Assembly: GCF_003261235.1 (NCBI RefSeq)
Contig: NZ_CP030085.1
Coordinates: 1,779,988 to 1,811,987 of the forward strand
Reading direction: 5' to 3'
DNA from: Polynucleobacter paneuropaeus
GTDB lineage: Bacteria > Pseudomonadota > Gammaproteobacteria > Burkholderiales > Burkholderiaceae
DNA: 32,000 bases
Shown: one piece after another, positions 11,223 through 32,000 of the stretch
Layout: each line of letters opens with the position of its first letter
Numbering within the stretch: position 1 is the first letter of the stretch
Position numbers and translations under genes: made by a program
The notes under the pieces: generated by a model
The model's input: only the letters and a program-made list of their open reading frames with translations
What the model was told of the DNA's origin: nothing
The model's database searches: none

Positions 11223-11285
11223 ATAACCCTCATATTTGCTTACAAGTTGTTATTAGGATATCAAATTTGTCCTTTTAAAGGGCAT

Positions 11286-12050: not shown

Positions 12051-12156
12051 AATCGTATCAGAAATATACCCGTTCTGCGTTCTAATTTAATTATGGCCAA
12101 GCGGTTAAATTTCTTAACAAGCAGTCATATTTCTTAATACAGAAAGAGAGTTAAAA

Positions 12157-12939: not shown

Positions 12940-12957
12940 TTAATCAAGGGGAATGTT

Positions 12958-13677
12958 ATGAGCGTTCCCCATTCTTATTTGAAAGGAATACAAATGTTTA
13001 CGAAAGGAAATAATCATGAGCCTAAAACAATTGATGACATCATCTTTGGAAATAATGAATCTAAATTGCGGATTGAAGATATTGTCTCGGGTGCCGAAGA
13101 ATTACCTTACAGCGGCAAATCAGCCATTCTTTTATACGGAGTCTTTGGGACAGGCAAAACCACACTGGCCAAAATGCTACCTAACCACATTGAATATGGC
13201 AAAACTAAAGAAGAGTTAGTTTGGGATCCAGTGTTTATAGGCTGTCAGCAGGGCTTTAATGGGCCACAGCTAATGACTAAGATTGATGCAATCATGACAA
13301 CAATGTCGCTAAACGTCAGCGGCCTTCATTACTTCATCCTTGATGAGGTGGATAACTTAACCAAGCTGGCGCAACAAAGTTTGAAAACGGCCTTGAATAC
13401 GACATTAGGTGTATTTGTGCTCACAACAAACAATGTTTCTCAATTAGATAAGGGCATGTTAGATCGTTGCATCTTAGTTGAGATGAATGCGGCAAATCCG
13501 AATGCTTATTTGGATATTGCCAAATCCATTGCCAATGAAACAGGAGTCACTTTATCTAATGATGAGCTTCTACCAACTATTCAGGCCGCCAATGGATCAT
13601 TTCGTAACTTGTTTCATAACGTGGGGCGCTTGGCTAGACGTAAGGCGGAAAAGGTGCCACCTAATGCTATCTACTAA
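12958..13677 (+). CDS. AAA+ ATPase, clamp-loader/RFC-like
   Basis: 239-aa ORF. Walker A GVFGTGKTT, Walker B ILDEVDNL followed by AQQSLKTALN (RFC box V-like), and LDRCILVEM (SRC-motif-like). Confidence 0.8.
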   Translation: MSVPHSYLKGIQMFTKGNNHEPKTIDDIIFGNNESKLRIEDIVSGAEELPYSGKSAILLYGVFGTGKTTLAKMLPNHIEYGKTKEELVWDPVFIGCQQGFNGPQLMTKIDAIMTTMSLNVSGLHYFILDEVDNLTKLAQQSLKTALNTTLGVFVLTTNNVSQLDKGMLDRCILVEMNAANPNAYLDIAKSIANETGVTLSNDELLPTIQAANGSFRNLFHNVGRLARRKAEKVPPNAIY

Positions 13678-13880: not shown

Positions 13881-13905
13881 AGCCCACTTCCGAGTGGGCT
13901 TTTTT
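13881..13905 (+). terminator. Rho-independent terminator
   Basis: AGCCCACT-TCCG-AGTGGGCT followed by TTTTT. Lies between the convergent genes 13688..13873 and 13904..15178. Confidence 0.8.
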
Positions 13906-15178
13906 ATGCCAACCTATCCGCCGCCATCGTTGCCGTCAACTTGCTGTAATGACGATCAATCATGGCGGCACTATTTCCCATCTGCTTAGATAGCGTATGT
14001 ATATCAGTCTTGTTCTCTAGTAGCTCCAAAGTAGCGTAGGTATGACGCAAGGAATATAAAGTACGCATCTGTCCGTCGTGACTCAATCCCAAGCCACTAT
14101 CTCGCATCAATCGCTTAAATGCGCCATCAATCCGCATGGGCTGGTGTCCGTTGGCAAAGACAAAGATCCGCTCGGGGCAACGAGTCTCAAACAATCTGTC
14201 AAATGGGATGTCGTACACAGCCTTTTGCCTACTGTGTAATCGCTTGAGAACGTCTACAGCTTTATGTTTGGCAATGAGCCAACGCCCTCCTGTCTTGCCA
14301 TCCACCCAAATACGTAGGTATTTCTTATCTCCCTGCGTGTGCCACTCAATATTATTCCAGCAGATATTCAGTGCTTCAGTGCCATGCCGCATGCCTGTGT
14401 ATAAGAGCATTTCCACATAATCTCGCAGTAGCGGACGAGTCTCATGCTCAATCTCTAATCGGCCTTGTTTAATCCATGGCTCCATAAACTCCAACAAGCG
14501 ATCAATCTCTTCACGAGTGAATGCTGGGCGGGTTTTACCCTTCTGCCCTCTAGCTGTGAGTTTGGGAATAGCTACTCGCTCGCTGATCCAGCCTTTGCTA
14601 ATAGCCACAAGCTGTAACTTAGTCCAAGCACTGGCAAAGTTCATTAGGGTGCTGGCACGAGGGATCTTATTCATCTGCCTATTACGCCAAACCTCAAACT
14701 CATGCACGTCTGTATAAGTTATTTCTTCTAGTCTTTTGTCCTGAAAGTAAGGTAGAAAGTATTTTTCAATACAGGTGATGTAGCTACCGTAGACACTTTT
14801 GCCTATACCCACATCCAAGTCTTGCCGCATTGAGTAGAGAGTGGCGTGTGCAATTTCTGCAAACGTGGGCGACTTTTGTGCAAGCCCCAGTCTTTGGCGA
14901 AATCTGGTTTCATCGTAAAGATCACAAGCCATTCGTACAGCGTGTTCAATGCTGGCTTGGCGCGTGGTCTGGCGATGCCATGAGCCATCTTGCAATCTAA
15001 AACGGCAATGCCAAAGTGGGCTTCCGGGTCTGCGGTGGATAACTACCTCGCCATCACGCAAGTAAAGCTCTGTGGGTTCGGCGTATTTGAGCTGGCTTAG
15101 GGCTGTGGGTTGGGATTCTTGGAGTGGTGAGGAGATTACTTCTAGGTGACTTTCAGGTACTTTGATTACCTTAGTCAC
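13904..15178 (-). CDS. int: Tyrosine integrase (phage-integrase family, P4-like size)
   Basis: 424-aa ORF. LYTGMRHGTE (Arg), LRHTYATLEL (box II His-x-x-Arg region), IDRHYSKL (catalytic Tyr). Confidence 0.9.
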   Translation of the reverse strand: MTKVIKVPESHLEVISSPLQESQPTALSQLKYAEPTELYLRDGEVVIHRRPGSPLWHCRFRLQDGSWHRQTTRQASIEHAVRMACDLYDETRFRQRLGLAQKSPTFAEIAHATLYSMRQDLDVGIGKSVYGSYITCIEKYFLPYFQDKRLEEITYTDVHEFEVWRNRQMNKIPRASTLMNFASAWTKLQLVAISKGWISERVAIPKLTARGQKGKTRPAFTREEIDRLLEFMEPWIKQGRLEIEHETRPLLRDYVEMLLYTGMRHGTEALNICWNNIEWHTQGDKKYLRIWVDGKTGGRWLIAKHKAVDVLKRLHSRQKAVYDIPFDRLFETRCPERIFVFANGHQPMRIDGAFKRLMRDSGLGLSHDGQMRTLYSLRHTYATLELLENKTDIHTLSKQMGNSAAMIDRHYSKLTATMAADRLA

Positions 15179-15318: not shown

Positions 15319-17829
15319 TTAGAGCAACTCCTTATTCTCAAAAGTAGCGGCATAATCTTCTGCACTCAAAACTGTGCTGAATAAACCAACATCCTCTCCA
15401 GCATGCTTATTGATCCCCACATAATTAAGACTAGCATCTTCATAACGCTTGAACTTATAAACAGCATCATTCATTAAGCCGCTATTAAATACACCTAGAC
15501 TAACCAATATTTCAAAATCTTTAACTGTTAATCCAGTTACTTTTTTAAACAAGCCTGGCTCCAGCTGAGTTATCACATCTTGTAAACTTCTCTCCCTATA
15601 GTCTGTTAGATACATAAAAACTGGAATACGAGTTGCAAACTTTATTAACTTCTCCTGTATCTGTTTACGAAGATTCTTATACTCCCTCTCCTCATCAGTC
15701 ATAGTCTTCTTATCTTTAGCTGAAGGTTCTTTTTTATTGGCCTCTTGCTTTATTTTTTTGACACTTTCTGACTTATTGATGATTGTTTCTATTTCTTGGT
15801 TGAGATTACGGAATCCTTCAATGCTCATCAAGGCCTTCATCGCATCCTTATTATTCATAAGTCGCTGAAGCGTTGAATTATCAACGTTTACCAAGAGGGC
15901 GCTTTCCCAGCGCCTAGCCAATAAAGTTGCAGTGGTTCCACTCATAGCCAAATCAAGTATTCCAGCCGCATCAATCTGCTTCATGGAAGAACCGTCATAT
16001 GCTAATACTGGTAAAAACTTAATAAACTCTTCCACCTTTTTTTCTGGATTACTTTCATTTACCTCTAAGCGACAACTGTAATCTGCTATCTGCTTAAGAG
16101 CTCGGTCTGGCGCGAAATCAAAAACATAACACTCCTCTTTAATGATTTGCTCTTTATTTGGGGATGTACTATCTGTATTTTTGATAGTCCAAGGTGTTTG
16201 GACTCTAAAGGCCGCTTGAAAATAAGTTTCGGGTGATGTTGTATTGCGCAACATAAAAATACCTGTCCAAGGCTTTACTGAGACGCCGGTAGTTAGCTTG
16301 CCGCAAGATAAGGTAATTGTTTTTGTTTTAAGTGGATCATCCATAGCCTCAAAAATAGGCGGCAATGCATCAACTCCAATTCCAGCACTGGGGCCTGCGG
16401 CTATGATGACTTCATAGTCGTTATAAAACTTATTTTGCTTCTGCTTAAGCAAGCTCCCCATTGCATAACATGAGGCAACTGTGGGAAGAAACCAGAAGGT
16501 ATGAGAAAGTAAGTTTAAAAGCCGCGCATGAGAAAATGGCATTGGAGGTTTTTTAGCCCCCAACTTTAAATTATCTATAGTAGTTTCGGAAAATGATCCT
16601 CGAATTAAATCAAGCCATTTTTGAACTTCATTTTCATATTTAAATTTTGCATTCTTACCTTCTCCATTTGCCGAAAAAAATACGTTTAAATCAAATTCGT
16701 CAAATTCACCCTCCATTGCTATACGCTTTATAGAATCGGGTAATTGGTATGTCATCAGTACCATTCTTGGTAATGCGGCATACGGGTTATTAGGCTTTAC
16801 CCAAGCCATTTTTGCACGTTGCTCATCGGAATACGTCCAATTGTAAATTTGTTCTTCAATGAACTCACCTGAGCCAATCGCCCTAAAAGGGGTGCCCGAC
16901 AGATAAAGATACGAATTTGTTGTAATTGGCATGACCTCTTCATCAAAATATTCAATTCCTTCACCCTCTGCAAACTTGATCTCTTTTTTATCTTCTGCTT
17001 CAAAAAGTTCTTTTGCACTTTCTCTCCAAGCGCCATAATGATATTCATCAAAAACAACGCAATCCCAATGCGTTGTGTGAACCCATTCATTTTTTGCTTT
17101 GATACCTCCTACAGAGTTTTTACCGAGGTAGTCTTGAAAGGAGCCAAAACATACAAATGGTTTATTCTTTTTTAAATCTTCATAGTGCAAACCATCACGC
17201 GAGAGAAATTGCCAATCAGCAAAATCAATATGATTTTTTAGATCCTCTTCCCATGCATTCTGAACTGCTGGCTTAAAAGTAAGTACGAGAACTTTCTTCC
17301 AGCTCATCTGTTTAGCCAGTTGATACGTAGCAAAAGTTTTACCAAATCGCATCTTCGCATTCCATAAAAAATGCGGCGTTTTACTTTTATTTTCACTAGA
17401 AAAACTTTTGAAATACGTAATAGTCTTGGAGACAGCTTCAGATTGCTCGGGACGCATGCCAAAATCCGCCGTTCTATTATCTTCTGAGAAGACGCCTGAT
17501 TTCACCGTAATAATTGCGGCCTTAACATCAGCTACATTGCATTTAAACCATTCCCCGTTAGGATTTTTAAATCCTTTCTTACGTAACACTCTATGAACAT
17601 CATGATCAGTAAATGAACCACCATCACTTTTCATAGCTGATTCTTCAAGCAAAATTTGGTACGGTAATTTACCTGGTGTTTTTAATGAATATATTTGTTT
17701 TAGCCGCGCCTGAGCGTTAATAGTTGTAAAGCCAACTTTGAGCAATCCATTAAATTGTGGATTGCTATCTTGATATGCATAAATGGTTGGGTTTGTATCA
17801 ACTTTTTTTGGAAAAAACTCATTTGCCAT
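15319..17829 (-). CDS. T5orf172 (GIY-YIG-like) nuclease domain fused to an SF2 helicase (Type III Res-like)
   Basis: 836 aa. N-terminus IYAYQDS..GLLKVGFTT...RLKQ...GEWF (T5orf172/MUG113 pattern). Helicase motifs MRFGKTF (I), VVFDEYH (II), LSGTPF (III), KLTTGVSV (V), QAAFRVQTP (VI-like). Start lies 1 nt after the MTase stop. Confidence 0.85.
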   Translation of the reverse strand: MANEFFPKKVDTNPTIYAYQDSNPQFNGLLKVGFTTINAQARLKQIYSLKTPGKLPYQILLEESAMKSDGGSFTDHDVHRVLRKKGFKNPNGEWFKCNVADVKAAIITVKSGVFSEDNRTADFGMRPEQSEAVSKTITYFKSFSSENKSKTPHFLWNAKMRFGKTFATYQLAKQMSWKKVLVLTFKPAVQNAWEEDLKNHIDFADWQFLSRDGLHYEDLKKNKPFVCFGSFQDYLGKNSVGGIKAKNEWVHTTHWDCVVFDEYHYGAWRESAKELFEAEDKKEIKFAEGEGIEYFDEEVMPITTNSYLYLSGTPFRAIGSGEFIEEQIYNWTYSDEQRAKMAWVKPNNPYAALPRMVLMTYQLPDSIKRIAMEGEFDEFDLNVFFSANGEGKNAKFKYENEVQKWLDLIRGSFSETTIDNLKLGAKKPPMPFSHARLLNLLSHTFWFLPTVASCYAMGSLLKQKQNKFYNDYEVIIAAGPSAGIGVDALPPIFEAMDDPLKTKTITLSCGKLTTGVSVKPWTGIFMLRNTTSPETYFQAAFRVQTPWTIKNTDSTSPNKEQIIKEECYVFDFAPDRALKQIADYSCRLEVNESNPEKKVEEFIKFLPVLAYDGSSMKQIDAAGILDLAMSGTTATLLARRWESALLVNVDNSTLQRLMNNKDAMKALMSIEGFRNLNQEIETIINKSESVKKIKQEANKKEPSAKDKKTMTDEEREYKNLRKQIQEKLIKFATRIPVFMYLTDYRERSLQDVITQLEPGLFKKVTGLTVKDFEILVSLGVFNSGLMNDAVYKFKRYEDASLNYVGINKHAGEDVGLFSTVLSAEDYAATFENKELL

Positions 17830-17830
17830 A

Positions 17831-19342
17831 TCAATCTTCCATTGGCTTTATTTTATTAGAAATATGCGTTATTTCATCTTTCGTTAAGCCGTATCTTTCA
17901 TACAAATCTTTCTCAGACCATTTTTTCTTCATCGACAAACTAGGTGCGAATAAAAATCTATCTTTTGTTATATCTTGTGAAAATGACATTTGAGCCACAA
18001 GGAACCTAACAAATTTCGTTTTTAGATAAGAGGCTAAATTTTCTGCCTCCTCTTTATTGTCAAATGCACCAGCAACTAAATAGGTTTCAGTACATACGTA
18101 ATCAGGTGGTAAAACATCAACAATGGAAAGAACTTTCCGCATCCCTTGTTTGTCAGGCTGTCCAGCATGGTCATATGAAACTTTTGATGTAATTACTTTC
18201 CACTTATTAATTAATTCAAAACCTGTTGTGATTTCACTCTTTTTAAAAGGGCCTTCGCCACCATTCCACCTCAAAATTAGGTCACCAGTTTTAGTTGGCC
18301 TGATATTTGTAGATAGGCCAAATGGTTTTCTACTTGAGACTTGTTTACTTAAGGAAAGGTCTTTCTTTTGATTTACTTTTCGGATGATGGAAATTGCATT
18401 GCTATCTCTAATTAAAGTATTAAATTCATTTAGCGATCTAGTGGATTTTGTGGTCAATCCACTATTAATAGTTGTAACTTCACAGTCTCCAGCATGGTCA
18501 CGAGACCAAAGAAAATAACAAATACCCCCAGCAATATCAACACCTGGAAAACAATCTGAAGCGTTTGGAAAATCAATTAAATGGCTGAGCCTATTATCAT
18601 TCAACATTGAATTTCTAAATTCATCAAGCCCTTTACCACCAGCAAACCATCTTGACGGAACAATCATTGAAATAAATCTAGGATTTAATTTAATGGCCTG
18701 TTCAATAAACTTGTGATACAAAGGTGAGGCACTTTTCCCAAAGCCTCCATCGTTTAACTGGTATGGTGGATTGCCAACTATTACATCAAATTTCATATCA
18801 AAAATTTCCTCTGGCGATTCAGTGTGAATAAATTGATAGGCATGGGTCTCAAGCTCACTACCTCGATTATGAACCTCAATACTTGCTCCGCAGAAGGTGC
18901 ACTTATTGTTTTTCCATACGTGCTCAACTCTATCAAATTTAATATTGCCCTCAACATTTTTAAATCTATTTACTAATGAGTATTTGCCATTTGCATTTTT
19001 TGAACAATAAAGTGATCTTCTAGAAAGTAGTGAGGTTAATTCCGTGATAGCTATTCCAAATACTTGATTGGTCAATATATGGTTAATTCTTTTTTCTTTA
19101 TCAGGTATTACTTTTGCTAAACCAACATCTAGCCTCTTAACTATTTCGCGGAGGAAAACTCCCGTCTTACTCACTGGATCCAAAAAGGTTGTTTCAGTAC
19201 TTTTCCACAGACTTAAGGGCAATAAATCTAAAATTTGATTTGCTAATACTGGGGGAGTGAAGACTTCATCATTGCTTAGATTGGCTATGCATGTCAGCAC
19301 GTCTGGGTTATAGGTTGTGTTAACGCTCATTTGTAACACCAA
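17831..19342 (-). CDS. Eco57I/TaqI-family N6-adenine DNA methyltransferase
   Basis: 503 aa. VFTPPVLANQILDLL (motif X), FLDPVSKTGVFL (motif I variant), DVIVGNPPYQ (motif IV). Confidence 0.85.
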   Translation of the reverse strand: MVLQMSVNTTYNPDVLTCIANLSNDEVFTPPVLANQILDLLPLSLWKSTETTFLDPVSKTGVFLREIVKRLDVGLAKVIPDKEKRINHILTNQVFGIAITELTSLLSRRSLYCSKNANGKYSLVNRFKNVEGNIKFDRVEHVWKNNKCTFCGASIEVHNRGSELETHAYQFIHTESPEEIFDMKFDVIVGNPPYQLNDGGFGKSASPLYHKFIEQAIKLNPRFISMIVPSRWFAGGKGLDEFRNSMLNDNRLSHLIDFPNASDCFPGVDIAGGICYFLWSRDHAGDCEVTTINSGLTTKSTRSLNEFNTLIRDSNAISIIRKVNQKKDLSLSKQVSSRKPFGLSTNIRPTKTGDLILRWNGGEGPFKKSEITTGFELINKWKVITSKVSYDHAGQPDKQGMRKVLSIVDVLPPDYVCTETYLVAGAFDNKEEAENLASYLKTKFVRFLVAQMSFSQDITKDRFLFAPSLSMKKKWSEKDLYERYGLTKDEITHISNKIKPMED

Positions 19343-19997
19343 AATAACTTGTTAAAGGATAGTCCTTTACTGGTGTTGGAATGAAAACTCCATCACCCAT
19401 ATCAGAAAACAATGGCAATGATTCAATTTCTGCATGGATTAGCAATCCTTCAAATGAATAATCGCGTCGCTTTACGAACCCCTCTGTTGCTGGTGACCAC
19501 TCTGAAAATACAATTGGTTTTGGTGGATTCGACGCTGTTTGAAACGTCAATGCATCACCCCAAACAATATTCTTACTCAAAATAAACTCTATTGAGTTAA
19601 TGCATTCTTCTCTTTTATTACTCTTGTATGATTTATCATAAAATTCAATGAATTTATTGAGCAATCTTTTTCTGCAATCAACAACATTATCTTCAAGAAT
19701 GTCTATGCCATAAAGGCTTGAAACGGCAATAATCGAATAGCATTCAAACTCAGTTTGACTCTTTTTGTATCTTGACTCCACTGTCGCCAATTTTCTAGTT
19801 AATATTTCTATCAAAAAGTTACCATGCCCACATGCTGACTCTAAAAATCTTGAGTCAATTCGTTCTGTTTCATGCTTGACTAAATCAAGCATTGCGTTTA
19901 CCTCACGAGGGTTTGTATAAACCTCACCATGGTTAGTGACCCGATTTCTAGAAACAACTTGGGAATCGAGCGGTTCCTGTTTTAACTGGTTACTCAT
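19320..19997 (-). CDS. Methyltransferase-like protein lacking a canonical NPPY (degenerate N-lobe paralog)
   Basis: 225 aa. VYTNPREVNAMLDL (motif X), FLESACGHGNFL (motif I), LYGIDI (II), WGDAL (III), and only SNPPKP where motif IV is expected. Overlaps the next ORF by 23 nt in another frame. Confidence 0.7.
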   Translation of the reverse strand: MSNQLKQEPLDSQVVSRNRVTNHGEVYTNPREVNAMLDLVKHETERIDSRFLESACGHGNFLIEILTRKLATVESRYKKSQTEFECYSIIAVSSLYGIDILEDNVVDCRKRLLNKFIEFYDKSYKSNKREECINSIEFILSKNIVWGDALTFQTASNPPKPIVFSEWSPATEGFVKRRDYSFEGLLIHAEIESLPLFSDMGDGVFIPTPVKDYPLTSYFGVTNER

Positions 19998-20110
19998 TTA
20001 TATTTTTTTATTTCTCTAATTTGCCTTCTACAGCCTTATTGTCTAGTCAGGCTAACCTTGTTTAATGCTTTAACTATCATTTTGCGTTATTTGGCACGTG
20101 TAATCAATTT

Positions 20111-20127
20111 TGTCGTTTTAAACGACA
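20111..20127. repeat. 17-nt perfect palindrome TGTCGTTTTAAACGACA
   Basis: Lies in the divergent intergenic region between 19997 and 20203. The same 17-mer occurs at 21803-21819, 23517-23533 and 26818-26834. Confidence 0.9.
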
Positions 20128-20202
20128 TTATTAGTTAAGGGGCTCATCTAGTGAGCTTCTGGTCTCATATTCTGACTATTCGCCATAACTTAGGGGATAG
20201 TC

Positions 20203-20517
20203 ATGAAATTTCTTATTACCTTGTTCTTGATAGCTCAGCTTGGACTCTTTGTTCGCAACTCTAGCGCACAAGTAGCAAATTTCGATAACTCGCCATACAA
20301 CATGCAAAACAGCCCCTACAACATGGATAACTCGCCGTATAACATGCGTAATAGCCCTTACAACATGGATAACAGCGCGTACAACGCTAACTCAAAAAAT
20401 GGGGTTTATGACAACTCAGGCAATCGTATTGGCTATGAGGTTAAGGCGCCAAGTGGAGTAACAAATTACTTTGACAACTCAGGTAATAGGATTGGCTATA
20501 CGCCATCAAAACGATAA
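20203..20517 (+). CDS. Small secreted repeat protein: five NS(P/A)YN heptad-type repeats (four NSPYNM, one NSAYNA) and DNSGNRIGY x2
   Basis: 104-aa ORF with a signal peptide (...VRNSSA-QV), five tandem 21-nt repeat units and two copies of DNSGNRIGY. Confidence 0.7.
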   Translation: MKFLITLFLIAQLGLFVRNSSAQVANFDNSPYNMQNSPYNMDNSPYNMRNSPYNMDNSAYNANSKNGVYDNSGNRIGYEVKAPSGVTNYFDNSGNRIGYTPSKR

Positions 20518-20831: not shown

Positions 20832-21800
20832 ATGGGTGATATGGAGCGGCTACATAGAATTAAGTACATGATTCAAGCGCGCCATTGCGTTTCGCTTGAC
20901 GAGTTTCTATCTGAGCTAGAAATATCAAAAGCAACCTTTAAGCGCGACTTAGAGTATTTGCGAAGCCGCATGAATGCGTCAATTGTTTACGATAGATTTA
21001 AGGGCGGGTACTGCTTTGATTCTGCCGTAATTGGTGAAAAAATTGAATTGCCTGGGCTTTGGTTTTCTGAAAAAGAGGCTACAGCATTAGTTCTAATGCA
21101 ACACCTCTTATCTGGCCTCGATAAAGGCGGCCTAATAGAGCCACACATTGCCCCATTAACCTCAATCATTGATGGCATTTTAGGTCAAAGCAACACTCCG
21201 ACAAAAGAACTGCGTAAGAGATTAAAAGTATTTGGAATGTCGGCGCGTAAAGGCTCTATCGAAAATTTTGAAGAGGTTGGTAACGCCCTCCTCACTCGCA
21301 AGAGACTTCATATTACTTACTATGCTCGTGGTAAAGATGAAACTACTAAGCGTGAAATTTCCCCACAACGATTAATCTTTTATAGAGATAACTGGTATCT
21401 AGATGCCTTCTGTCATCTACGAAAAGATTTACGTAGCTTTGCTGTCGACTGTATTAGCAAAGCAATCATTACCAACTCAAAGGCAGATGAGATTTCCGAA
21501 AAGCAATTACATGAACACTTTGCAGAGAGCTATGGAATATTCTCTGGCAAAGCTAGTCAACGCGCCAAGCTAAAGTTCTCACCTGAAAAAGCTAGATGGG
21601 TTAGTAGTGAAACATGGCATGGTCAACAAGTTGGAGCTTTCGATAAGGAAGGTAACTACCTTCTAGAATTTGATTACAACCAAGACCCAGAATTGGTAAT
21701 GGATATTTTGAAGTATGGAGCAGGCGTTGAAGTTCTGGCGCCAACAAGTCTTCGTAAACGAGTTAAAGATGAGGCTACAAAAACATTAGCTTTGTATTAA
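20832..21800 (+). CDS. YafY-family HTH + WYL-domain transcriptional regulator (BrxR/CapW-like architecture)
   Basis: 322 aa. N-terminal HTH (ISKATFKRDLEYLR) and central FYRDNWYLDAFC (WYL signature). Confidence 0.85.
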   Translation: MGDMERLHRIKYMIQARHCVSLDEFLSELEISKATFKRDLEYLRSRMNASIVYDRFKGGYCFDSAVIGEKIELPGLWFSEKEATALVLMQHLLSGLDKGGLIEPHIAPLTSIIDGILGQSNTPTKELRKRLKVFGMSARKGSIENFEEVGNALLTRKRLHITYYARGKDETTKREISPQRLIFYRDNWYLDAFCHLRKDLRSFAVDCISKAIITNSKADEISEKQLHEHFAESYGIFSGKASQRAKLKFSPEKARWVSSETWHGQQVGAFDKEGNYLLEFDYNQDPELVMDILKYGAGVEVLAPTSLRKRVKDEATKTLALY

Positions 21801-21802
21801 TT

Positions 21803-21819
21803 TGTCGTTTTAAACGACA
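21803..21819. repeat. 17-nt palindrome TGTCGTTTTAAACGACA
   Basis: Starts 3 nt after the WYL gene stop codon. Confidence 0.9.
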
Positions 21820-21942
21820 CGGCAAGTAACCACCCCGGATGGTTGGCGCGGTTAGGCAGAGTTAGGGAAAATAGACAGCGGTAGGCAAAGTCCAACAGCG
21901 TTGAATACTGTGGGTAACAGTAAACACTAAGACTAGAAACGA

Positions 21943-22023
21943 AAAATGACTGCCTAAGCAGTCATTTTGATGATTCTTGGTGGCCCGGGGCGGAATCGAA
22001 CCAGGGCCGAGGATGTCCAATCC
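21943..22023 (-). repeat. T-element copy 8 (hairpin ATGACTGCCTAAGCAGTCAT variant)
   Basis: Core at 21978-22016. Its first 26 nt are identical to 6760-6785. Confidence 0.9.
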
Positions 22024-23240: not shown

Positions 23241-23404
23241 AGCGTCGCTTAAATCGACGCTTGACCAACGCAGGGATGACAAATCCCCAATTCATAAACC
23301 GTCCTTTTAAAGGACGGTTCTAGTTAAGGAGGGCATTGGAAGACCTAGGGGAAATAGTGCCAGATCCTGTCAAGCCATAAAAGAAAAACCACCCGAAGGT
23401 GGTT
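23241..23404 (-). repeat. Composite repeat (modules A-B-C-X'-hairpin) lacking the tRNA-like core
   Basis: AGCGTCGCTTAAATCGACGCT (23241-23261), TTGACCAACGCAGGGATGACAAATCCCC (23261-23288), GTCCTTTTAAAGGAC (23301-23315), GGGGAAATAGTGCCAGA, hairpin CCACCCGAAGGTGG (23389-23402). Confidence 0.8.
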
Positions 23405-23515
23405 AGTGTCTCCTCCAACCGATAACGATCTTGAATTGGCTTTTGCTATGACAATTCAATTTTGCTCTAAGTAGAGTGGAATATAGCTAGGACTAACCCT
23501 TGGGCGTAATTAGAA

Positions 23516-23578
23516 ATGTCGTTTTAAACGACATCGACTGACGCAGGGATGAATAATTGACATGTCCTTTAAAAGGAA
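23516..23578. repeat. Palindrome ATGTCGTTTTAAACGACAT + module B variant + imperfect GTCCTTTAAAAGGAA
   Basis: 23516-23534; CGACTGACGCAGGGATGAATAA; 23564-23578. Confidence 0.8.
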
Positions 23579-23630: not shown

Positions 23631-23714
23631 AAAAGAAAATAGCCCAGCAAGTGGGCTATTGAGATTCTTGGTGGCCCGGGGCGGAATCGAACCAGGGCCG
23701 AGAATGTCTGACTC
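23631..23714 (-). repeat. T-element copy 9
   Basis: Hairpin ATAGCCCAGCAAGTGGGCTAT; core at 23669-23708. Confidence 0.9.
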
Positions 23715-26788: not shown

Positions 26789-26817
26789 GGCTCAAATTCT
26801 ATACCCGATTACTAAAT

Positions 26818-27079
26818 TTGTCGTTTTAAACGACATTACAAGCACCGACCATGGACGAGCGTCTCTTAAATAGACACTGACCAGCACAGGGATGACAAAT
26901 CCCCTCGTTCAACAAACGTCCTTTTAAACGACATTCCGAGTCAAGGGAAGAGCTGGAAAACCAAGGGGAAATGGTGCCAGACCGCGGCTAACACTAGAGA
27001 TTCGATGGACCACTTCTAATGTTCGGAGAATTCTTGGTGGCCCGGGGCGGAATCGAACCAGGGCCGAGGATGCCCAATC
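26818..27079 (-). repeat. Full composite repeat (palindrome P, A', B, C', X, T) including T-element copy 10
   Basis: TGTCGTTTTAAACGACA (26818-26834), GTCTCTTAAATAGAC (26860-26874), CTGACCAGCACAGGGATGACAAATCCCC (26876-26903), GTCCTTTTAAACGAC (26917-26931), X module, core at 27035-27073. Confidence 0.85.
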
Positions 27080-27080
27080 A

Positions 27081-27392
27081 TTATTTCCTATTGGCCCCAT
27101 AAGTCTTATTAAGATAGTCGACTATGACTGGAACTTCCTCATCAGTAATGGGCGCCTTAAATACATTTTTCATCCTTAAAACTTGGGCATTCCAATAGCC
27201 AACTCCCGTATTGGGCGGTTGATATTCTGCATAGTGGGCAGAGTGACAGGTAGAGCATTTCTGTAAAGTCAGCTGATAGCCTGGCAAATCTGATGGCCTC
27301 CATAAAACAGTATCAGCTGGCAACTCAATCGTTTTAGCTTGTGCCATTTGTGCCAAAGCAAGAGCAGATAGAAGGAGGATAATTTTTTTCAT
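27081..27392 (-). CDS. sorB: Monoheme cytochrome c, SorB-like partner of the Mo-oxidoreductase
   Basis: ORF 27081..27434. The start at 27392 (MKKIILLLSALALAQMAQA) has AAGGAG upstream and lies 8 nt after the sorA stop. CSTCH heme-binding motif. Confidence 0.8.
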   Translation of the reverse strand: MKKIILLLSALALAQMAQAKTIELPADTVLWRPSDLPGYQLTLQKCSTCHSAHYAEYQPPNTGVGYWNAQVLRMKNVFKAPITDEEVPVIVDYLNKTYGANRK

Positions 27393-27402
27393 ATTCTTCT
27401 CC

Positions 27403-28626
27403 TTAAACCGCTGTGACTTTAACAGTCTCAACAATATTTCGCATATAGCCAGCCGGCATCCAACTTGCAGTCATCGGCTGAACTTGGCCAGCATGATTGA
27501 ATGCTCTAACCCTCAAGTCCAACATCCCTTTTTGTTTTGGCGTAAATTCAATGCGCCACTCTCTAAATGAGAAGCGACCTAGATCTTGGCCCAATCTTGC
27601 TTCTGTCCAATTTTGTCCATTGTCCTGCGAGAACAACACTTTCTTTATTCCAAAGCCAGCATCAAAGGCAATGCCTCGAGCTTGAACCGGCTTACCAACA
27701 GTGACAACGCTATTGTCTGTGAAGTTCGTAATGAATGAGCGGATAGTGAACTGATTAATAGGAATCGTTTTAGAAGGAGCAGTTCCAGGCGCAACACAGT
27801 TACAGTCATTATCAGGAATACGATAAGCAGGATTCATCCAGTAGCCGTTATAAACATCATCAACTACTTGTATTTCACTCAGGTGCTTAACCCAATAGGT
27901 TCCGTAGTAGCCGGGAACAATTAACTTGATTGGATAACCATTTAAGAAAGGAATATCTGTTCCATTCATTTGATAGGCAACCATGACATTGCCATCCATC
28001 GCGTGATCAATGTCCAAACCTTTTACGAAGTCTGAATCACTTGGCAATACTGGTTGATCTAAGCCATCAAAGGTCACTTGCTTGGCACCTCGACCAGGAT
28101 TGGCCGCCTTCAAAATATCCTTTAAGGCAACACCAACCCAAGCGGCATTACCCATGGCGCCATTACCAAGTTGCCCACCATTAACTCTAGGCTCAAATAA
28201 GCCACGACTATTACCAGAGCATTGATTAACAGCAACAATACGTTGAGCTGGAAAGTTTTTCTTTAAAGACTCCAGAGAAATCTCTAAAGGCTTTTCTACA
28301 TTGCCACCAACTTTTAGCCGATAAGTTTTAGGGTCAATGGATGTTGGAATGCCAGCCATGTGATAACGCACAAAGAATTCATCATTTGGCGTAATGACAT
28401 GATTGTCGTAATACTTAAATGGGGTTTCTAATTGCGGCGGCCGAGAAGTCAACACAATCATGGGCTTCTTTTCAGGAAAGGCCATGAGTTCGCGCTCACC
28501 ATAGGCTATGGGTAAATTCGTTTTCTCTACACCCATTGCCCAGGATGGCAATAATGAACTGGCTCCACCAGCCAAGGCCGCTGTAATGACTTTACGTCTA
28601 TTGGTAAAGTTTTCTGAATTCATCAA
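27403..28626 (-). CDS. sorA: Sulfite dehydrogenase / sulfite-oxidase-family molybdopterin subunit (SorA-like)
   Basis: 407 aa. Tat leader (NRRKVITAALAGGAS), a Mo-ligand cysteine context (NQCSGNSRG) and a C-terminal dimerisation-domain-like region. The start may be TTG 28626 or ATG 28623. Confidence 0.85.
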   Translation of the reverse strand: MMNSENFTNRRKVITAALAGGASSLLPSWAMGVEKTNLPIAYGERELMAFPEKKPMIVLTSRPPQLETPFKYYDNHVITPNDEFFVRYHMAGIPTSIDPKTYRLKVGGNVEKPLEISLESLKKNFPAQRIVAVNQCSGNSRGLFEPRVNGGQLGNGAMGNAAWVGVALKDILKAANPGRGAKQVTFDGLDQPVLPSDSDFVKGLDIDHAMDGNVMVAYQMNGTDIPFLNGYPIKLIVPGYYGTYWVKHLSEIQVVDDVYNGYWMNPAYRIPDNDCNCVAPGTAPSKTIPINQFTIRSFITNFTDNSVVTVGKPVQARGIAFDAGFGIKKVLFSQDNGQNWTEARLGQDLGRFSFREWRIEFTPKQKGMLDLRVRAFNHAGQVQPMTASWMPAGYMRNIVETVKVTAV

Positions 28627-28740
28627 TGTCTCCTCCGCCCATAGCTATCTGGGCATCATGTTGATCTGGATCAATATAGCCCATAAAGATAGTGCGTACG
28701 GGTAGGAGATACCCGCATAGACAGTGCCTTTATCACCAGC

Positions 28741-28812
28741 GTCGCTTAAATCGACACTTGACTGGCACAGGGATGACAAATTCCCCATTCACAAAGCGTC
28801 CTTTTAAAGGAC
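28741..28812 (-). repeat. Modules A-B-C only (no X or T)
   Basis: GTCGCTTAAATCGAC (28741-28755), TTGACTGGCACAGGGATGACAAATTCCCC, GTCCTTTTAAAGGAC (28798-28812). Confidence 0.85.
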
Positions 28813-28843
28813 GCTTTATATTTAAGCCGCTTTAATGTGAGGT

Positions 28844-29653
28844 CTATACCGCTTTATAAATTAGGTTCAGCGCCACCAAGAAAGTAAAAATGGCGAATAT
28901 CTGTTGCACTCTAGTGCCGCTGATCTTTTTCTCCATTAACTTTCCAAATACCAGCCCCATAAGTGATCCCAAAGCAAATAGGATGGCAATCTCTACATTC
29001 AGATTGCCTGAAGCCAATGACACAAGAGCGCCCCCTGAAGACACGATTGCTAGAACACCTAGAGAAGTGGCAACAATGGATTTCATTGGAAGGTCCGTGA
29101 ATTTCTTTAGTGAAGGCACTATGACAAAACCACCGCCAACTCCTAATAAGCCCGACAAGAAACCTGCAGTGAGTCCTGCATACATTAAAGATCTGGCGCA
29201 TGGGACTGTCCAAATCAATTTACTAATTGATAAATCCAACTGGCAAGGCGGCGGGGTTGCTGAAGTTGGTAATGTGCCATTGATAGTCTTATGGGCCTGT
29301 ATATATAGGCGCGCAGACACAAAAATTAAAATAGCACTGAATAGAAGTAACAAGGGAGCATTGGGCATCTTATTGGCAACCCATAGCCCAATAGGCGACA
29401 TGATGAGGCCAAAGATAGACATAAAAATCGCGGCTTTATAACGCAGCACTTTTTCTTTAAGTCCAATAATTGCGCCTACTGTAGCTGATAAGGCAATGGC
29501 ACATAATGCGATTGGACTTGCTTCAGCCATTGGTAAATGAACAAAGAAAACTAAAAGTGGCACTGAGAGTATTCCGCCTCCTGCTCCTGATAGCCCCATT
29601 AAGATCCCAACAAAGGCGCCTAGAGCAGGGATGATTAATATATGTAGGTCCAT
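28844..29653 (-). CDS. TauE/SafE-family permease, copy 2
   Basis: 269-aa paralog of 2308..3117. Confidence 0.9.
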   Translation of the reverse strand: MDLHILIIPALGAFVGILMGLSGAGGGILSVPLLVFFVHLPMAEASPIALCAIALSATVGAIIGLKEKVLRYKAAIFMSIFGLIMSPIGLWVANKMPNAPLLLLFSAILIFVSARLYIQAHKTINGTLPTSATPPPCQLDLSISKLIWTVPCARSLMYAGLTAGFLSGLLGVGGGFVIVPSLKKFTDLPMKSIVATSLGVLAIVSSGGALVSLASGNLNVEIAILFALGSLMGLVFGKLMEKKISGTRVQQIFAIFTFLVALNLIYKAV

Positions 29654-29719
29654 TAGTTGACTTGCAAGTGAAAGTTAATATTAATTGGCATTCGGGGTGT
29701 AGTGATCCTACAATGAATT

Positions 29720-30586
29720 ATGGAAAACGCCCCAATCGTCAAAACCTTTTTTGATGCGCCCACCTGGACCTTTACCCATGTGGTTTATGAAGAGCCAGGG
29801 AGTCAATGTGCAATTATCGATTCTGTGCTTAATTATGATCCTAAGTCAGGGCGAACAAGCACCCAATCAGCAGATGAGGTCATTGAATTTATTCGACATC
29901 AAAACTTGCAAGTTAATTGGATCTTAGAAACTCATGCTCATGCGGATCATCTAACGGCAGGTTCTTATATCAAGAAGCATGTTGGTGGCAAGCTGGCAAT
30001 TGGTAAGCACATCCAAGAAGTTCAAGCAGTTTTCAAAAACATTTTTCATTTAGAAGATGCATTTCAAGCTAACGGATCTCAATTTGACCATTTGATTGAA
30101 GCAGATGAAGAATTGCCTTTGGGTAACCTAAAAATGAAAGCACTATTTGTACCCGGACACACTCCAGCTTGCATGGCTTATGTAATAGGCGATGCTATTT
30201 TTGTGGGTGACACAATGTTTATGGCTGATGTTGGTACAGCTAGATGTGACTTTCCTGGTGGTGATGCACATGCTTTATATAAATCGGTAAAGAGAATATT
30301 AAGTTTTCCTGATGAGACTAGGCTATATATGTGTCATGACTACCCGCCAAATGATCGGGAAGTAGTCTATGTAACAACAGTTGGCGAAGAGCGTCAACAT
30401 AACATTCATATCCACGATGGCATTTCAGAACAAGACTTTGTGGCGATGAGAACAGCAAGAGACTCTACCTTAGAGATGCCCGTATTAATTTTGCCGTCAG
30501 TCCAAGTAAATATTCGTGCAGGTGAGTTTCCTCCCAAAGAGGCGAATGGTGTTTCTTATCTAAAGATTCCATTAAATTATTTATAA
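29720..30586 (+). CDS. MBL-fold metallo-hydrolase, copy 2
   Basis: 288-aa paralog of 3184..4059; THAHADH motif. Confidence 0.85.
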   Translation: MENAPIVKTFFDAPTWTFTHVVYEEPGSQCAIIDSVLNYDPKSGRTSTQSADEVIEFIRHQNLQVNWILETHAHADHLTAGSYIKKHVGGKLAIGKHIQEVQAVFKNIFHLEDAFQANGSQFDHLIEADEELPLGNLKMKALFVPGHTPACMAYVIGDAIFVGDTMFMADVGTARCDFPGGDAHALYKSVKRILSFPDETRLYMCHDYPPNDREVVYVTTVGEERQHNIHIHDGISEQDFVAMRTARDSTLEMPVLILPSVQVNIRAGEFPPKEANGVSYLKIPLNYL

Positions 30587-30603: not shown

Positions 30604-30657
30604 TTAATCAGTGCAGGGATGAATCATCCCCCCCACACAACTGTCCTTTTAAAGGAC
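30604..30657 (-). repeat. Modules B'-C
   Basis: TTAATCAGTGCAGGGATGAATCATCCCCCCC, then GTCCTTTTAAAGGAC (30643-30657). Confidence 0.8.
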
Positions 30658-30708
30658 GCTTATTGATGGGGATATCCGAGACTAATTACATCTAACCCCA
30701 CCAAGCCC

Positions 30709-30790
30709 AAAAGAAAATAGCCCAACAAGTGGGCTATTGAGATTCTTGGTGGCCCGGGGCGGAATCGACCAGGGCTGAGGATGTCTGATC
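30709..30790 (-). repeat. T-element copy 11
   Basis: Hairpin 30717-30737, core 30747-30785. GATCAGACATCC follows the TAG stop of 30791..31222 directly (minus-strand reading). Confidence 0.9.
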
Positions 30791-31222
30791 CTAGCTAGCT
30801 TGCTTGTGCCACTTCTGCTTTTCCTCGGGGCTCATATTTTCCCATTTGGCTTTACGGGCCTTCATCTCAGCCTGCTCTTCAGGCGTTAGTCCATCAAAGA
30901 AAGTCTTTCTCTCTGCTTTCATTTTCTCTTTTTGCTCAGGAGTAATTGATTGCCATTGAGCCTTCATTTTCTCGTGAACCAACTTGCGATCTTCAGGGCT
31001 TAAAGCCTTCATTTGATCGCGCATCTTATGCCAGTATTCTTTACGCTCTTCTGGAGTAGCCTTAAGTAATGCGGCATCTGTTTGTTTCATTTGCTCAAGG
31101 CGCTGATCAAATGTTAGGTTGATGTTTGCCAACGGATTTGGTGGTTCAGGTATCGCCGCACCGGCCAAAGAAAATACAGACATACCAAATAGCAGTCCCA
31201 CTACAAATTTCTTAGAACTCAT
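30791..31222 (-). CDS. Periplasmic repeat protein (Spy/CpxP- or DUF3106-like W..(S/T)PE motifs)
   Basis: 143 aa with a signal peptide and four repeats of the type (S/T)PE(D/E/Q)..(K/E)(M/W/L). Confidence 0.65.
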   Translation of the reverse strand: MSSKKFVVGLLFGMSVFSLAGAAIPEPPNPLANINLTFDQRLEQMKQTDAALLKATPEERKEYWHKMRDQMKALSPEDRKLVHEKMKAQWQSITPEQKEKMKAERKTFFDGLTPEEQAEMKARKAKWENMSPEEKQKWHKQAS

Positions 31223-31287
31223 AACTCCCCCTCTTGTTAGTTATTCCTCATTCTAGCCCCGACTAACGAATCCTCATCCCCCCGACC

Positions 31288-31372
31288 AAAAGAAAATAGC
31301 CCAACAAGTGGGCTATTGAGATTCTTGGTGGCCCGGGGCGGAATCGACCAGGGCCTCAGGAGACTCGCATCC
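31288..31372 (-). repeat. T-element copy 12
   Basis: Hairpin ATAGCCCAACAAGTGGGCTAT; core from 31326. The distal part diverges (GGGCCTCAGGAGACTCGCATCC). Confidence 0.9.
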
Positions 31373-31382
31373 TACCTCTAGA

Positions 31383-31601
31383 CTACTTCCAGCTAAGGTT
31401 CAGCTTCTTATGCGAAGCGGCACAATCTCTCAAATAGAGATTAATGAGGCTTTGATAAGGAATTCCAACTTCTTCTGATACAGATTTGAAGTAACTCACT
31501 GAATCCTCATCCAATCTAATGGTAATGGGCTTCTTGAGCACAGAAGCATATGGGTTTTTACGAGCCTTTGAGAAATCATATTCTTTACGCATCTTCATCA
31601 C
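31383..31601 (-). CDS. brnA: BrnA-family antitoxin
   Basis: 72 aa. NPYA...ITIRLDEDSVSYFK...GIPYQSLINLYLR matches the BrnA pattern. Lies 2 nt downstream of brnT. Confidence 0.85.
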   Translation of the reverse strand: MMKMRKEYDFSKARKNPYASVLKKPITIRLDEDSVSYFKSVSEEVGIPYQSLINLYLRDCAASHKKLNLSWK

Positions 31602-31603
31602 CT

Positions 31604-31897
31604 TTAATAAGCTTTTGACTCTTTAGGGGTTGCCTTACGAGCCGAAATAATACGAACGACATTACCCTCGCTTCGATAGCAATGGCAAACCAAAATCACA
31701 CGAAGAGAATGGCTTACTCCCAGCAAGATAAATCTGTCTTCATCCTCCGAATGATCGGGGTCGGAAATTAACTTAGCACTTTCATCATAAAACACAGATT
31801 TCGCCTCTTCAAAAGAAATACCGTGTTTCTTTAGATTGGCCGAAGCTTTTCTGGGCTCCCATTCAAATCGTAACAAAGTCATATGTACATTGTACAT
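31604..31897 (-). CDS. brnT: BrnT-family toxin (DUF497 ribonuclease)
   Basis: 97 aa. FEWEPRKASANLKKHGISFEEA..VF.D, E.RF...G and RIISARKAT..E match DUF497. The true start may be the ATG at 31882. Confidence 0.85.
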   Translation of the reverse strand: MYNVHMTLLRFEWEPRKASANLKKHGISFEEAKSVFYDESAKLISDPDHSEDEDRFILLGVSHSLRVILVCHCYRSEGNVVRIISARKATPKESKAY

Positions 31898-31937
31898 ATA
31901 TTAATTAGAAGGAGCAAGTCCGCCTGACCAAAAGAAA

Positions 31938-32000
31938 ATACCCCGCACGAAGCAGGGCATTATTTAAATCTTGGTGGCCCGGGGCGGAATCCACAAGAGC
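31938..32000 (-). repeat. T-element copy 13 (CCCCGCACGAAGCAGGG hairpin variant), cut by the window edge
   Basis: Core TGGTGGCCCGGGGCGGAATCCAC from 31972. Confidence 0.8.

Follow-up and report, generated by a model that had tools for sequence, protein, structure and literature searches.

A fine-grained array of cassettes and islands at the tRNA-Phe gene of Polynucleobacter paneuropaeus

In the 32,000-nucleotide stretch of the Polynucleobacter paneuropaeus chromosome analysed here (the window; contig NZ_CP030085.1, positions 1,779,988 to 1,811,987), two copies of a sulfur-gene block are each followed by small gene units set apart by one recurring repeat, the T-element, and this raises the question of what the T-element is and why the units behind the two blocks differ. 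The initial annotation treated the T-element as anonymous punctuation, distributed the units over two arrays at homologous positions and suggested a recombination hot spot. We found that the T-element is instead a tRNA-Phe fragment, an attachment-site copy made up of the 3' end of the tRNA-Phe(GAA) gene, an intrinsic terminator and a degenerate pseudo-tRNA arm, and that the region therefore reads as one stack of mobile cassettes and islands at tRNA-Phe; the hot spot itself was borne out.

The T-element and its tRNA-Phe anchor

When aligned with the real gene, the reverse complement of the T-element equals the tRNA-Phe 3' end over 22, 26 or 45 nt, depending on the copy, and the arm aligns as a decayed anticodon/D-arm region. 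The window holds 13 copies, every one on the same strand (core matches on the + strand, elements read on the minus strand); the 20-nt core TGGTGGCCCGGGGCGGAATC gave 12 matches at ≤3 mismatches, all on the + strand, where shuffles expect zero, and the 13th copy, at 594–625, is degenerate. Across 319 unique T sites from 113 loci, the lengths of tRNA identity were discrete (22 nt, 145 sites; 26 nt, 31; 45 nt, 22; 76 nt, the intact gene, 24), orientation was uniform in 95/95 loci with at least two T sites, and T-to-T spacing had a minimum of 308 bp, a mode of 500–700 bp and a median of 1041 bp. All combinations of terminator type and arm class occur. A 22-nt variant that is unable to match the real tRNA was present in 97 stretches (nearly all Polynucleobacter species).

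The T-element was also considered as a structured RNA and rejected as such, with weak folds beyond the terminator (z-scores −1.2 to −2.6). An arm hairpin, GGAT-N5-ATCC, is exact in 77/264 short-class sites and shows no compensatory pattern; we read it as a decayed anticodon stem, possibly a protein-binding site, and not as an RNA structure. Scans of viral contigs with the 22- and 26-nt T variants returned 0 matches, which counts against the main explanation, in which units would pass between cells; the eight viral stretches that did match did so only to the 45-nt or full tRNA sequence.

Extension beyond position 32,000, which the initial annotation had proposed as the way to find the end of the array, did find it: on the source contig the end lies 2.5 kb past the window, where an intact tRNA-Phe adjoins the conserved ycaO. 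This intact tRNA-Phe(GAA) beside ycaO lies at 14793–14868 of locus L012, equivalent to window coordinates 34512–34587, minus strand. At the other end, a coreless T remnant, ~1.1 kb outside the window start, flanks sorB copy 1 on its left, and from this remnant to the intact tRNA-Phe there is one co-oriented array of ~36 kb in place of the two that had been supposed.

Units, sulfur blocks and integrases of the array

The last gene of sulfur block 2 encodes MBL-fold hydrolase copy 2 (29720–30586, + strand; Pfam Lactamase_B), and all items listed downstream of it in the initial annotation are where it had put them. First comes a 'B-C' repeat module (~30604–30700, no strand), which holds the palindrome GTCCTTTTAAAGGAC and belongs to the conserved flank, being kept in strains with an empty site (L009). 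It is followed by a T-element (30714–30790, minus strand), which on its own strand runs from the arm (30769–30790) through the 22-nt core (30747–30768) and a spacer to hairpin A (30716–30738). The core matches the tRNA-Phe 3' end identically; hairpin A is an intrinsic terminator that also stands after the intact tRNA in the empty-site strain L009, and this T-element is the original tRNA 3' end, displaced, with the native tRNA terminator. The next unit carries a 143-aa DUF3106 protein (30791–31222, minus strand; Pfam DUF3106, E 5.5e-10) of secreted type, with a signal-like N-terminus and repeated PEE..K..W motifs, and the same cassette was found at other array positions too. A second T-element (31293–31370, minus strand; hairpin A 31295–31317, core 31326–31347, arm to ~31370) separates it from the toxin-antitoxin pair BrnA (31383–31601; Pfam, E 1e-8) and BrnT (31604–31897; Pfam, E 3e-27), both on the minus strand, and a third (~31935–32000, minus strand; hairpin C 31937–31961, variant core from 31972) is cut by the window edge, its full copy lying at 12206–12300 in L012. 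Like CIMEs, the DUF3106 and BrnTA units hold cargo only between T sites, without integration or transfer genes.

The contents given for the equivalent slot after MBL copy 1 (3184–4059) were likewise confirmed: DUF2789 (4075–4308), a composite repeat of B-C module and T-element (4440–4655, the T-element part being 4583–4655, minus strand), three single-gene units and a large island. The single genes encode a tautomerase (4709–5149), a lipid-A acyltransferase-like protein (5215–6066) and a DUF1003 protein (6168–6683), and are bounded by the T-elements at 4583–4655, 5143–5215 and 6091–6163 (all minus strand). The island spans 15.2 kb between the T-elements at 6757 and 21975. Its distal T-element (6727–6804, minus strand) is of the 45-nt class, with tRNA-Phe identity that reaches the anticodon loop and then a degenerate 5' half, and has a paralogous copy at 1868–1945; T-elements of the 26-nt class (21945–22022 and 23636–23708, minus strand) bound its proximal end and a cupredoxin unit. 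Another 26-nt-class T-element (27002–27079, minus strand) forms the left boundary of sulfur block 2.

We compared ten genomes that encode a 100% identical MBL2 protein. Sulfur block 2 (sorB-sorA-tauE-MBL, 27081–30586) is conserved in 10/10, and its left-boundary T-element is at the same place in 9/10 (position 7316 in L009, L010, L012 and L014); the tenth, a 12.9-kb metagenome contig, has no core match at the equivalent position. The two block copies have diverged (83–93% nucleotide identity); in amino acids, copy 1 is 87–93% identical to copy 2 (MBL1 vs. MBL2, 87%; tauE1 vs. tauE2, 92.6%) and 86% identical to a P. meluiroseus MAG, and no record matched MBL copy 1 or tauE copy 1 by exact sequence. 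In L001, an array of another organism has the same chromosomal flank without a sulfur block. Homology of the flanks, as initially claimed, is thus upheld, and their standing as fixed flanks is not: because each sulfur block is bounded by T sites or a T remnant, both are, judged by these boundaries, units inside the array. The proposed check of cargo composition against the sorA/tauE/MBL flanks found no difference in codon usage or in GC and GC3 (0.38–0.44 in cargo vs. 0.40–0.46 in flanks; only the restriction-modification genes are lower, at 0.35–0.38). By composition nothing points to a foreign origin, and the cassette pool probably lies within the genus.

Further units stand inside sulfur block 1. 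T-elements at 564–636 (degenerate), 1227–1315 and 1868–1945 (minus strand) delimit two units that interrupt the block between sorA copy 1 and tauE copy 1, a YoeB/Phd unit and one of 186 aa. In all, three units lie there, and the equivalent place in copy 2 is without a T site; these insertions are unexplained by simple integration at T sites and count against the main explanation.

The 15-kb island encodes two tyrosine recombinases and an AAA ATPase. The first, Int424 (13904–15178, minus strand), is a full-length tyrosine integrase of 424 aa (PHROG_1 integrase, E 7e-31) whose homologues adjoin T sites or tRNA-Phe in other species (L018, L077, L028, L086, L091), which makes it a candidate trans-acting recombinase. 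The second, Int188 (10317–10883, + strand; 188 aa; Pfam Phage_integrase, E 6e-26), consists of the catalytic domain only and has XerC-like PDB matches; it has homologues, and its size is conserved across islands. NCBIfam integron-integrase models run against both recombinases scored 43.3 bits (cut-off 265) and 23.9 bits (cut-off 435), so that neither is an IntI.

Slot contents across strains and exchange at the core

Among the ten genomes, the slot between MBL and tRNA is empty in three, holds one cassette in one and four to eight in two, and is filled by large islands in four. The empty slots (L009, L014, L016) read MBL, B-C module, terminator A, tRNA-Phe. In L007, with its single cassette, terminator A has stayed with the displaced fragment and the tRNA is followed by a new one, hairpin B; gene and T-element were gained together at an otherwise intact tRNA. 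An identical BrnT protein stands amid different neighbours in six metagenome contigs (L001–L006). The visible slots of several strains contain only integrase-less cassettes, and neither Int424 nor Int188 could be matched to the 22/26-nt class; both observations count against the main explanation. The hot-spot reading holds because slot cargo differs among ten genomes with identical MBL2, and their comparison supports ongoing turnover; the same cargo in all related genomes, which the initial annotation had named as the sign of the opposite, was clearly not found.

The locus thus has an intact target tRNA at one end, co-oriented 3'-end repeats at unit boundaries, presence/absence polymorphism with an uninterrupted empty site and a recombinase in some units, as accretion arrays do. 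We consider it likely that the region makes up the tRNA-proximal portion of an array built by tandem accretion at the tRNA-Phe 3' end, with units moved by a tyrosine integrase. A tRNA-anchored hot spot of this sort is of a well-known kind, here unusually fine-grained.

We reasoned that the host site would be the 3' end of tRNA-Phe(GAA), a gene present once in the Polynucleobacter chromosome, and that every unit, whether a single-gene cassette, the sorAB-tauE-MBL block or the 15-kb integrase-bearing island, would carry an attP-like site: a degenerate pseudo-tRNA-Phe that agrees fully with the gene in its last 22, 26 or 45 nt, with an intrinsic terminator of its own behind it. Either the tRNA gene or any copy already in the array would serve as the partner of this site in recombination by a tyrosine integrase; the tRNA would be restored with the 3' end and terminator that the unit brings in, and the displaced 3' end would stay behind as a T-element. 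As every T-element would be an att copy in the shared orientation, a series of units flanked by any two of them should be excisable as a circle, able to re-insert at a different T-element or in a different cell. Integrases of co-resident islands would act in trans on cassettes that lack one of their own. From the sequences we infer a site-specific rather than RecA-mediated reaction, the integrase that acts and the circularisation of single cassettes.

For excision to a circle and re-integration the junctions give indirect support. A four-cassette block of 3.97 kb is 99.95% identical between L011 (852–4822) and L015 (11020–14991), on opposite sides of the sulfur block and at different array positions, and at 5/5 of its junctions flank, core and arm are recombined exactly at the 22-nt core. 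Because hairpins and arms differ, the partners share only ~26 bp (core plus TTCT). Copies of the DUF3106 cassette in different contexts show the same limits, with homology that begins 4 nt before one core and stops where the next one ends. The terminator hairpin differs (A or B) among diverged copies of a single cassette; such a swap requires extra gene conversion or a second exchange point and counts against the main explanation.

Could the T-elements be passive scars, relics of old integrations, with the variation produced by RecA-dependent exchange between ~70–100-bp repeats and by segment replacement after DNA uptake, anchored in the homology of the conserved sulfur block and core genes? 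The hairpin swaps would fit this, as would the up to ~100 bp that T-elements have in common with one another and the sulfur block that is 98–100% identical between strains while both its sides vary; Polynucleobacter populations, moreover, recombine often, with high gene flow in this species group (PMC7936036). We nonetheless regard this reading as unlikely, given that the L011/L015 junctions are exact although the partners share so little sequence, that tRNA identity comes in discrete lengths of 22, 26 and 45 nt, that orientation is strictly uniform and that integrases are linked to T sites. Some of the variation may be due to homologous replacement.

That the small units are decay remnants, left over from larger integrase-bearing islands after internal deletions and not themselves mobile, appears quite improbable, although this is the standard proposed origin of cis-mobilizable elements (PMC5704250) and degenerate T sites do exist (594–625; the coreless one to the left of sorB1). 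A given single-gene unit can be found in several contexts and species, bounded exactly at cores, unit sizes peak sharply at 500–700 bp (a uniform ~0.6 kb), and the layout of arm and terminator is conserved in all units, pointing to dedicated cassettes. Finally, an integron with T as attC served by IntI, or a tRNA-derived MITE/SINE in which T itself transposes, is hardly credible and was rejected: the likeness (short, mostly co-oriented single-gene units split by a ~100-bp structured repeat) is superficial, what separates the cassettes is a tRNA 3' end with a terminator and not attC, the recombinase scores fall far below the IntI cut-offs, gene and T are gained jointly at an intact tRNA, one array has a single orientation, and neither terminal inverted repeats nor target-site duplications were seen.

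Known systems and the flexible gene pool

The tandem accretion array that we favour has precedents. Accretion of integrative elements and CIMEs at tRNA or tmRNA genes is known from the Dehalococcoides ssrA genomic islands (PMC3146451) and, for the ICESt1 type, has been reviewed (PMC5704250). As in these arrays, an intact target gene lies at one end, co-oriented 3'-end direct repeats stand at every unit boundary with extra conserved sequence beside the repeat, insertion is in or near the T-loop, units occur with and without integrases, and content varies by strain. Unlike them (islands of ~10 kb), the commonest unit here is a single gene of 0.3–1 kb, each unit brings its own tRNA terminator, and three nested identity classes (22, 26 and 45 nt) exist on one tRNA; the recombinases are tyrosine enzymes, as against a serine recombinase in Dehalococcoides (PMC3146451).

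Closer in ecology are an additive flexible genomic island of 'Ca. Methylopumilus' whose repeats copy the final 20 nt of tRNA-Lys (PMC10872708) and the additive islands with gene cassettes of Polynucleobacter asymbioticus (10.1101/2022.03.25.485477, citing Hoetzinger et al. 2017). In the accessible text of these two sources, the islands resemble ours in belonging to freshwater streamlined betaproteobacteria, in tRNA 3' ends as repeats, in sizes from a few hundred bp to tens of kb and in cargo of mostly small genes of unknown function; the target tRNA differs from the tRNA-Phe used here, and the same text contains no account of att anatomy, terminator, identity classes or cut-and-paste junctions. 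Our literature search found no paper naming both Polynucleobacter and tRNA-Phe (Hoetzinger et al. 2017 lay outside its scope). Prochlorococcus tycheposons share tRNA integration, partial-tRNA flanks, islands that persist through repeated insertion and excision, adaptive cargo and a streamlined planktonic host; their defining features are a lineage-specific integrase, placed at one end, and a replication module (10.1101/2020.12.28.424599), whereas the small cassettes here have neither.

With integrons the locus shares an ordered array of small, mostly co-oriented cassettes that would be excisable, reorderable and capturable at a fixed chromosomal site. It differs in having no IntI and no attC, in sites that are tRNA-derived, double-strand att copies and in some oppositely oriented cassettes; since the cassettes are separated by terminators, they probably need their own promoters, unlike those of integrons. 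The structure is of a known kind (tandem accretion, additive genomic island), and what stands out is its single-gene units and genus-wide occurrence.

Polynucleobacter is among the most abundant freshwater bacterioplankton and serves as a model for microdiversity in streamlined genomes. For that microdiversity the locus offers a concrete mechanism, in that close strains whose MBL protein is identical are set apart by groups of small genes; among the cargo are toxin-antitoxin pairs, periplasmic and membrane proteins, a carbonic anhydrase, a glutathione S-transferase-like protein, a ferritin and sulfite-oxidation genes. There is also a warning for annotation, as the two sulfur blocks are cargo and not fixed chromosome. 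Primers on attC serve for harvesting integron cassettes, and the invariant 22-nt core, especially the variant unlike the real tRNA, is a comparable primer or search handle for the flexible gene pool in metagenomes. We tentatively entertain a stronger possibility, that Polynucleobacter carries a dedicated cassette system, analogous to integrons and mechanistically distinct from them, in which a trans-acting tyrosine recombinase would cut out single cassettes, reshuffle them and capture them at tRNA-Phe, with hundreds of different single-gene cassettes each bearing a ~100-bp att that mimics tRNA-Phe and supplies a replacement tRNA terminator. If true, this system would be a genus-wide common pool of small adaptive genes.

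The array and its anchoring tRNA-Phe

MBL copy 2 (Pfam Lactamase_B) ends at 30586 and is followed by an intergenic B-C repeat module with the palindrome GTCCTTTTAAAGGAC (about 30604-30700), a first T-element (30714-30790), a 143-aa ORF on the minus strand (30791-31222; DUF3106, E 5.5e-10) with a signal-like N-terminus and repeated PEE..K..W motifs, a second T-element (31293-31370), brnA (31383-31601), brnT (31604-31897) and a third T-element truncated at the window edge. Downstream of MBL copy 1 come DUF2789, a composite repeat and three single-gene units, as well as a 15.2-kb island flanked by the T-elements at 6757 and 21975. We thus found every item that the initial annotation had listed for 30604-32000 at its place, and its account of what follows MBL copy 1 was confirmed too.

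The 20-nt core of the T-elements, TGGTGGCCCGGGGCGGAATC, has 12 copies in the window at ≤3 mismatches (vs. 0 in shuffles), all on the plus strand, in addition to a degenerate 13th copy at 594-625. On the minus strand this core reads as a tRNA 3' end terminating in CCA, and the longest copies (1901-1945 and 6760-6804) reach back to the anticodon loop with GAA. ARAGORN found no intact tRNA inside the window. We obtained the source contig, L012, by a look-up of the MBL copy 2 protein, which nine further places encode in exactly the same form (L012 position = window − 19719, sequence identity checked). An intact tRNA-Phe(GAA) lies on its minus strand at 14793-14868 (window 34512-34587). Conserved ycaO, a two-component system, rsmB, fmt and def come immediately after it. 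Two further units, with one T-element between them, separate the window edge from this tRNA; one encodes DUF6803, a 112-aa ORF and a BV97_02767-family protein, and the other a 98-aa ORF and cytochrome c.

A look-up of the 186-aa ORF yielded L122, which adds 8.7 kb of the source contig left of the window. The left terminus of the array falls at about 12985-13030 of L122 (window about −1105), just outside sorB copy 1, where a terminator-B module is fused straight to an arm homologous to that at 27035 and the 22-26-nt core is deleted. Because this coreless remnant lies left of sorB copy 1 and no further T sites were found in the next 7.5 kb of L122 (which holds Cupin_7, Lipoprotein_15, a histidine phosphatase, a TPR protein and an aquaporin), the array is about 36 kb long and comprises 14 cored T sites, one coreless remnant and the intact tRNA, in a single orientation.

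T-elements at 27035 and 30747 flank sulfur block 2 (sorB-sorA-tauE-MBL), whose right boundary in strains with an empty slot is tRNA-Phe itself; the left boundary of block 1 is homologous to that of block 2. A metagenome contig with an identical BrnT (L001) carries a short array that ends beside the same phosphatase-TPR flank, without the sulfur block. Judged from these boundaries and from the array that lacks the block, both sulfur blocks are themselves units of the array. The initial annotation had proposed a recombination hot spot with two homologous slots; the hot spot stands in substance, but the slots are consecutive stretches of one array, and that reading was incomplete and partly mis-framed.

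T-element anatomy, slot occupancy and recombinant junctions

We surveyed 319 unique T sites at 113 loci, drawn from ten conspecific genomes, metagenome contigs and 97 stretches matching the 22-nt variant (one genome per species). Orientation was uniform within the locus in all loci with at least two sites (95/95), and T-to-T distances were never below 308 bp, fell most often at 500-700 bp and had a median of 1041 bp. Alignment of all T-elements to the real gene gave, on the tRNA strand, an arm, a tRNA-identical block, a ~10-nt spacer and an intrinsic terminator. The arm is a degenerate pseudo-tRNA with D-arm remnants and an anticodon-stem remnant (GGAT-N5-ATCC), and the block after it is identical to the tRNA-Phe 3' end over discrete lengths of 22 nt (145 sites), 26 nt (31), 45 nt (22) or 76 nt, the intact gene (24). 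Across sites, terminator types and arm classes occur in free combination.

Another, intergenic repeat family is built on the palindromes GTCCTTTTAAAGGAC and GTCGTTTTAAACGAC, often with CAGGGATGACAAATCCCC before them (2159-2261, 4439-4541, 7015-7068, 11257-11285, 12181-12220, 20100-20128, 21792-21839, 23241-23343, 23506-23578, 26796-26960, 28738-28840 and 30642-30717); a copy is found next to the genuine tRNA-Phe, and another downstream of each MBL gene. These repeats look like REP elements or bidirectional terminators.

Among the genomes with the identical MBL copy 2 protein, the slot is empty in three (L009, L014 and L016), where the MBL stop, B-C module, hairpin A terminator and tRNA-Phe fall within about 160 bp. 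L007 holds exactly one unit, the DUF3106 cassette; its intact tRNA-Phe is followed by hairpin B, unlike the empty-site terminator, and the displaced 22-nt fragment beside MBL retains hairpin A and has gained the cassette's arm. We read this state as the classical attP × attB outcome within the tRNA 3' end, in which the element would supply a new 3' end and terminator. Elsewhere the slot holds 4-5 units (L010), 6 units (L012), a diguanylate-cyclase/glycosyltransferase block (L011) or large islands (L008, L013 and L015), and the identical BrnT protein occurs in metagenome contigs beside different neighbours (bestrophin, Rap1a, ferritin, a glutathione S-transferase-like protein and HigBA). Slot contents and BrnT neighbours therefore vary rather than being the same everywhere, and the cargo turnover first suggested for this slot is upheld.

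Two DUF3106 cassettes that sit in different surroundings (L010 at 1454, L007 at 11030) share homology that begins 4 nt ahead of one core and stops at the final base of the following core, with none beyond. Four units (BV97_02767; carbonic anhydrase; LMWPc + FMN reductase; a 216-aa ORF) form a 3.97-kb block that is 99.95% identical between L011, where it lies left of the OmpA-sulfur block, and L015, where it lies right of MBL; precise flank/core/arm recombinants are seen at the deletion junction and at each of the two insertion junctions, and the recombining partners have only about 26 bp in common. At the level of sequence, this block offers the clearest case for T sites acting as recombination sites.

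Recombinases and other elements at tRNA-Phe

The 15-kb island encodes a 424-aa tyrosine integrase (Int424, 13904-15178; PHROG_1, E 7e-31) and a 188-aa tyrosine recombinase consisting of the catalytic domain only (Int188, 10317-10883; Pfam E 6e-26; XerC-like in PDB). Islands of other strains and species carry homologues of both together, along with DUF6641 and an AAA ATPase, and in L018, L077, L028, L086 and L091 an Int424 homologue is found 0.3-2 kb away from a T site or intact tRNA-Phe. An integron integrase was ruled out for both proteins.

In three other Polynucleobacter species (L028 3995-5259, L086 1192-2812, L091 398-1991), an integrase with 41-47% identity to Int424 is encoded divergently from an intact tRNA-Phe, 300-380 bp from its 5' end, and the cassette array extends on the 3' side of the tRNA; this layout is either integron-like or that of an island that uses a full-length tRNA copy as its att site. 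L117 (IMG/VR UViG_3300025206_000016, 1-13065) is a 13-kb contig between 51-nt direct repeats containing the 45-nt tRNA-Phe 3' part, and encodes Zot, a secretin, a G2P/RepSA-like replication protein, a tyrosine integrase and a CI-like repressor. This contig represents an integrating filamentous phage at the same attachment site, and thus the same tRNA serves several kinds of element.

In the window (8893-9032, plus strand) and in two related islands of other genomes (L015 18811-18946 and L076 2703-2838), the Rfam Polynucleobacter-1 RNA motif (RF01718, 83-92 bits) is situated between the DUF6641 gene and the small integrase; given this placement in three islands, a family of tRNA-Phe-integrating islands appears to carry this orphan motif. 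The 15-kb island also encodes, at 15319-19997, a T5orf172/ResIII helicase-like protein (836 aa), a split Eco57I/MmeI-type methyltransferase and then a WYL-domain regulator, probably a defence module; GC of the first two (0.35-0.38) is below that of the rest of the region. A small ORF of the same island (20203-20517) contains four to five tandem 21-nt units (20284-20388) encoding heptapeptide repeats of the type D/Q-N-S-P-Y-N-M.

Mechanism and relation to known systems

Tandem accretion at tRNA-Phe through tyrosine-integrase recombination best explains the array; cassettes without an integrase would be units mobilizable in cis or in trans, and excision would be possible between any two T sites. 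The sequences directly show the identity of the T sites, empty as well as occupied alleles, recombinant junctions that are exact, and integrase linkage. From them we infer a site-specific reaction, a candidate enzyme for it, circularisation of single cassettes and some route between cells. Diverged copies of one cassette bear different terminators, which falls outside this mechanism's account. Three T-bounded units (YoeB/Phd; the 186-aa ORF; a 215-bp island arm 87% identical to 6804-7019) lie at 564-2300 between sorA copy 1 and tauE copy 1, where copy 2 has only the B-C module. Integration at T sites alone does not explain these insertions. Homologous recombination probably contributes to the variation, especially to whole-segment replacement.

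The pattern matches the Dehalococcoides ssrA tandem islands, which have 20-bp repeats, extra conserved sequence beside the repeat, T-loop insertion and integrase-less units read as cis-mobilizable elements (PMC3146451), as well as the accretion/CIME concept (PMC5704250) and tycheposon-built islands (10.1101/2020.12.28.424599). It also matches the 'Ca. Methylopumilus' additive island, which has repeats of the last 20 nt of tRNA-Lys and sizes of 330 bp to 42 kb (PMC10872708); additive islands with cassettes are mentioned for P. asymbioticus as well (10.1101/2022.03.25.485477). The tRNA-Phe array is particular in that its modal unit is a single gene, the element supplies the tRNA terminator, there are three nested identity classes, it is spread across the genus and a cut-and-paste event is directly visible. 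The array is a well-resolved example of an already known type of structure, and it would be more remarkable if a dedicated recombinase proved to move single cassettes individually.
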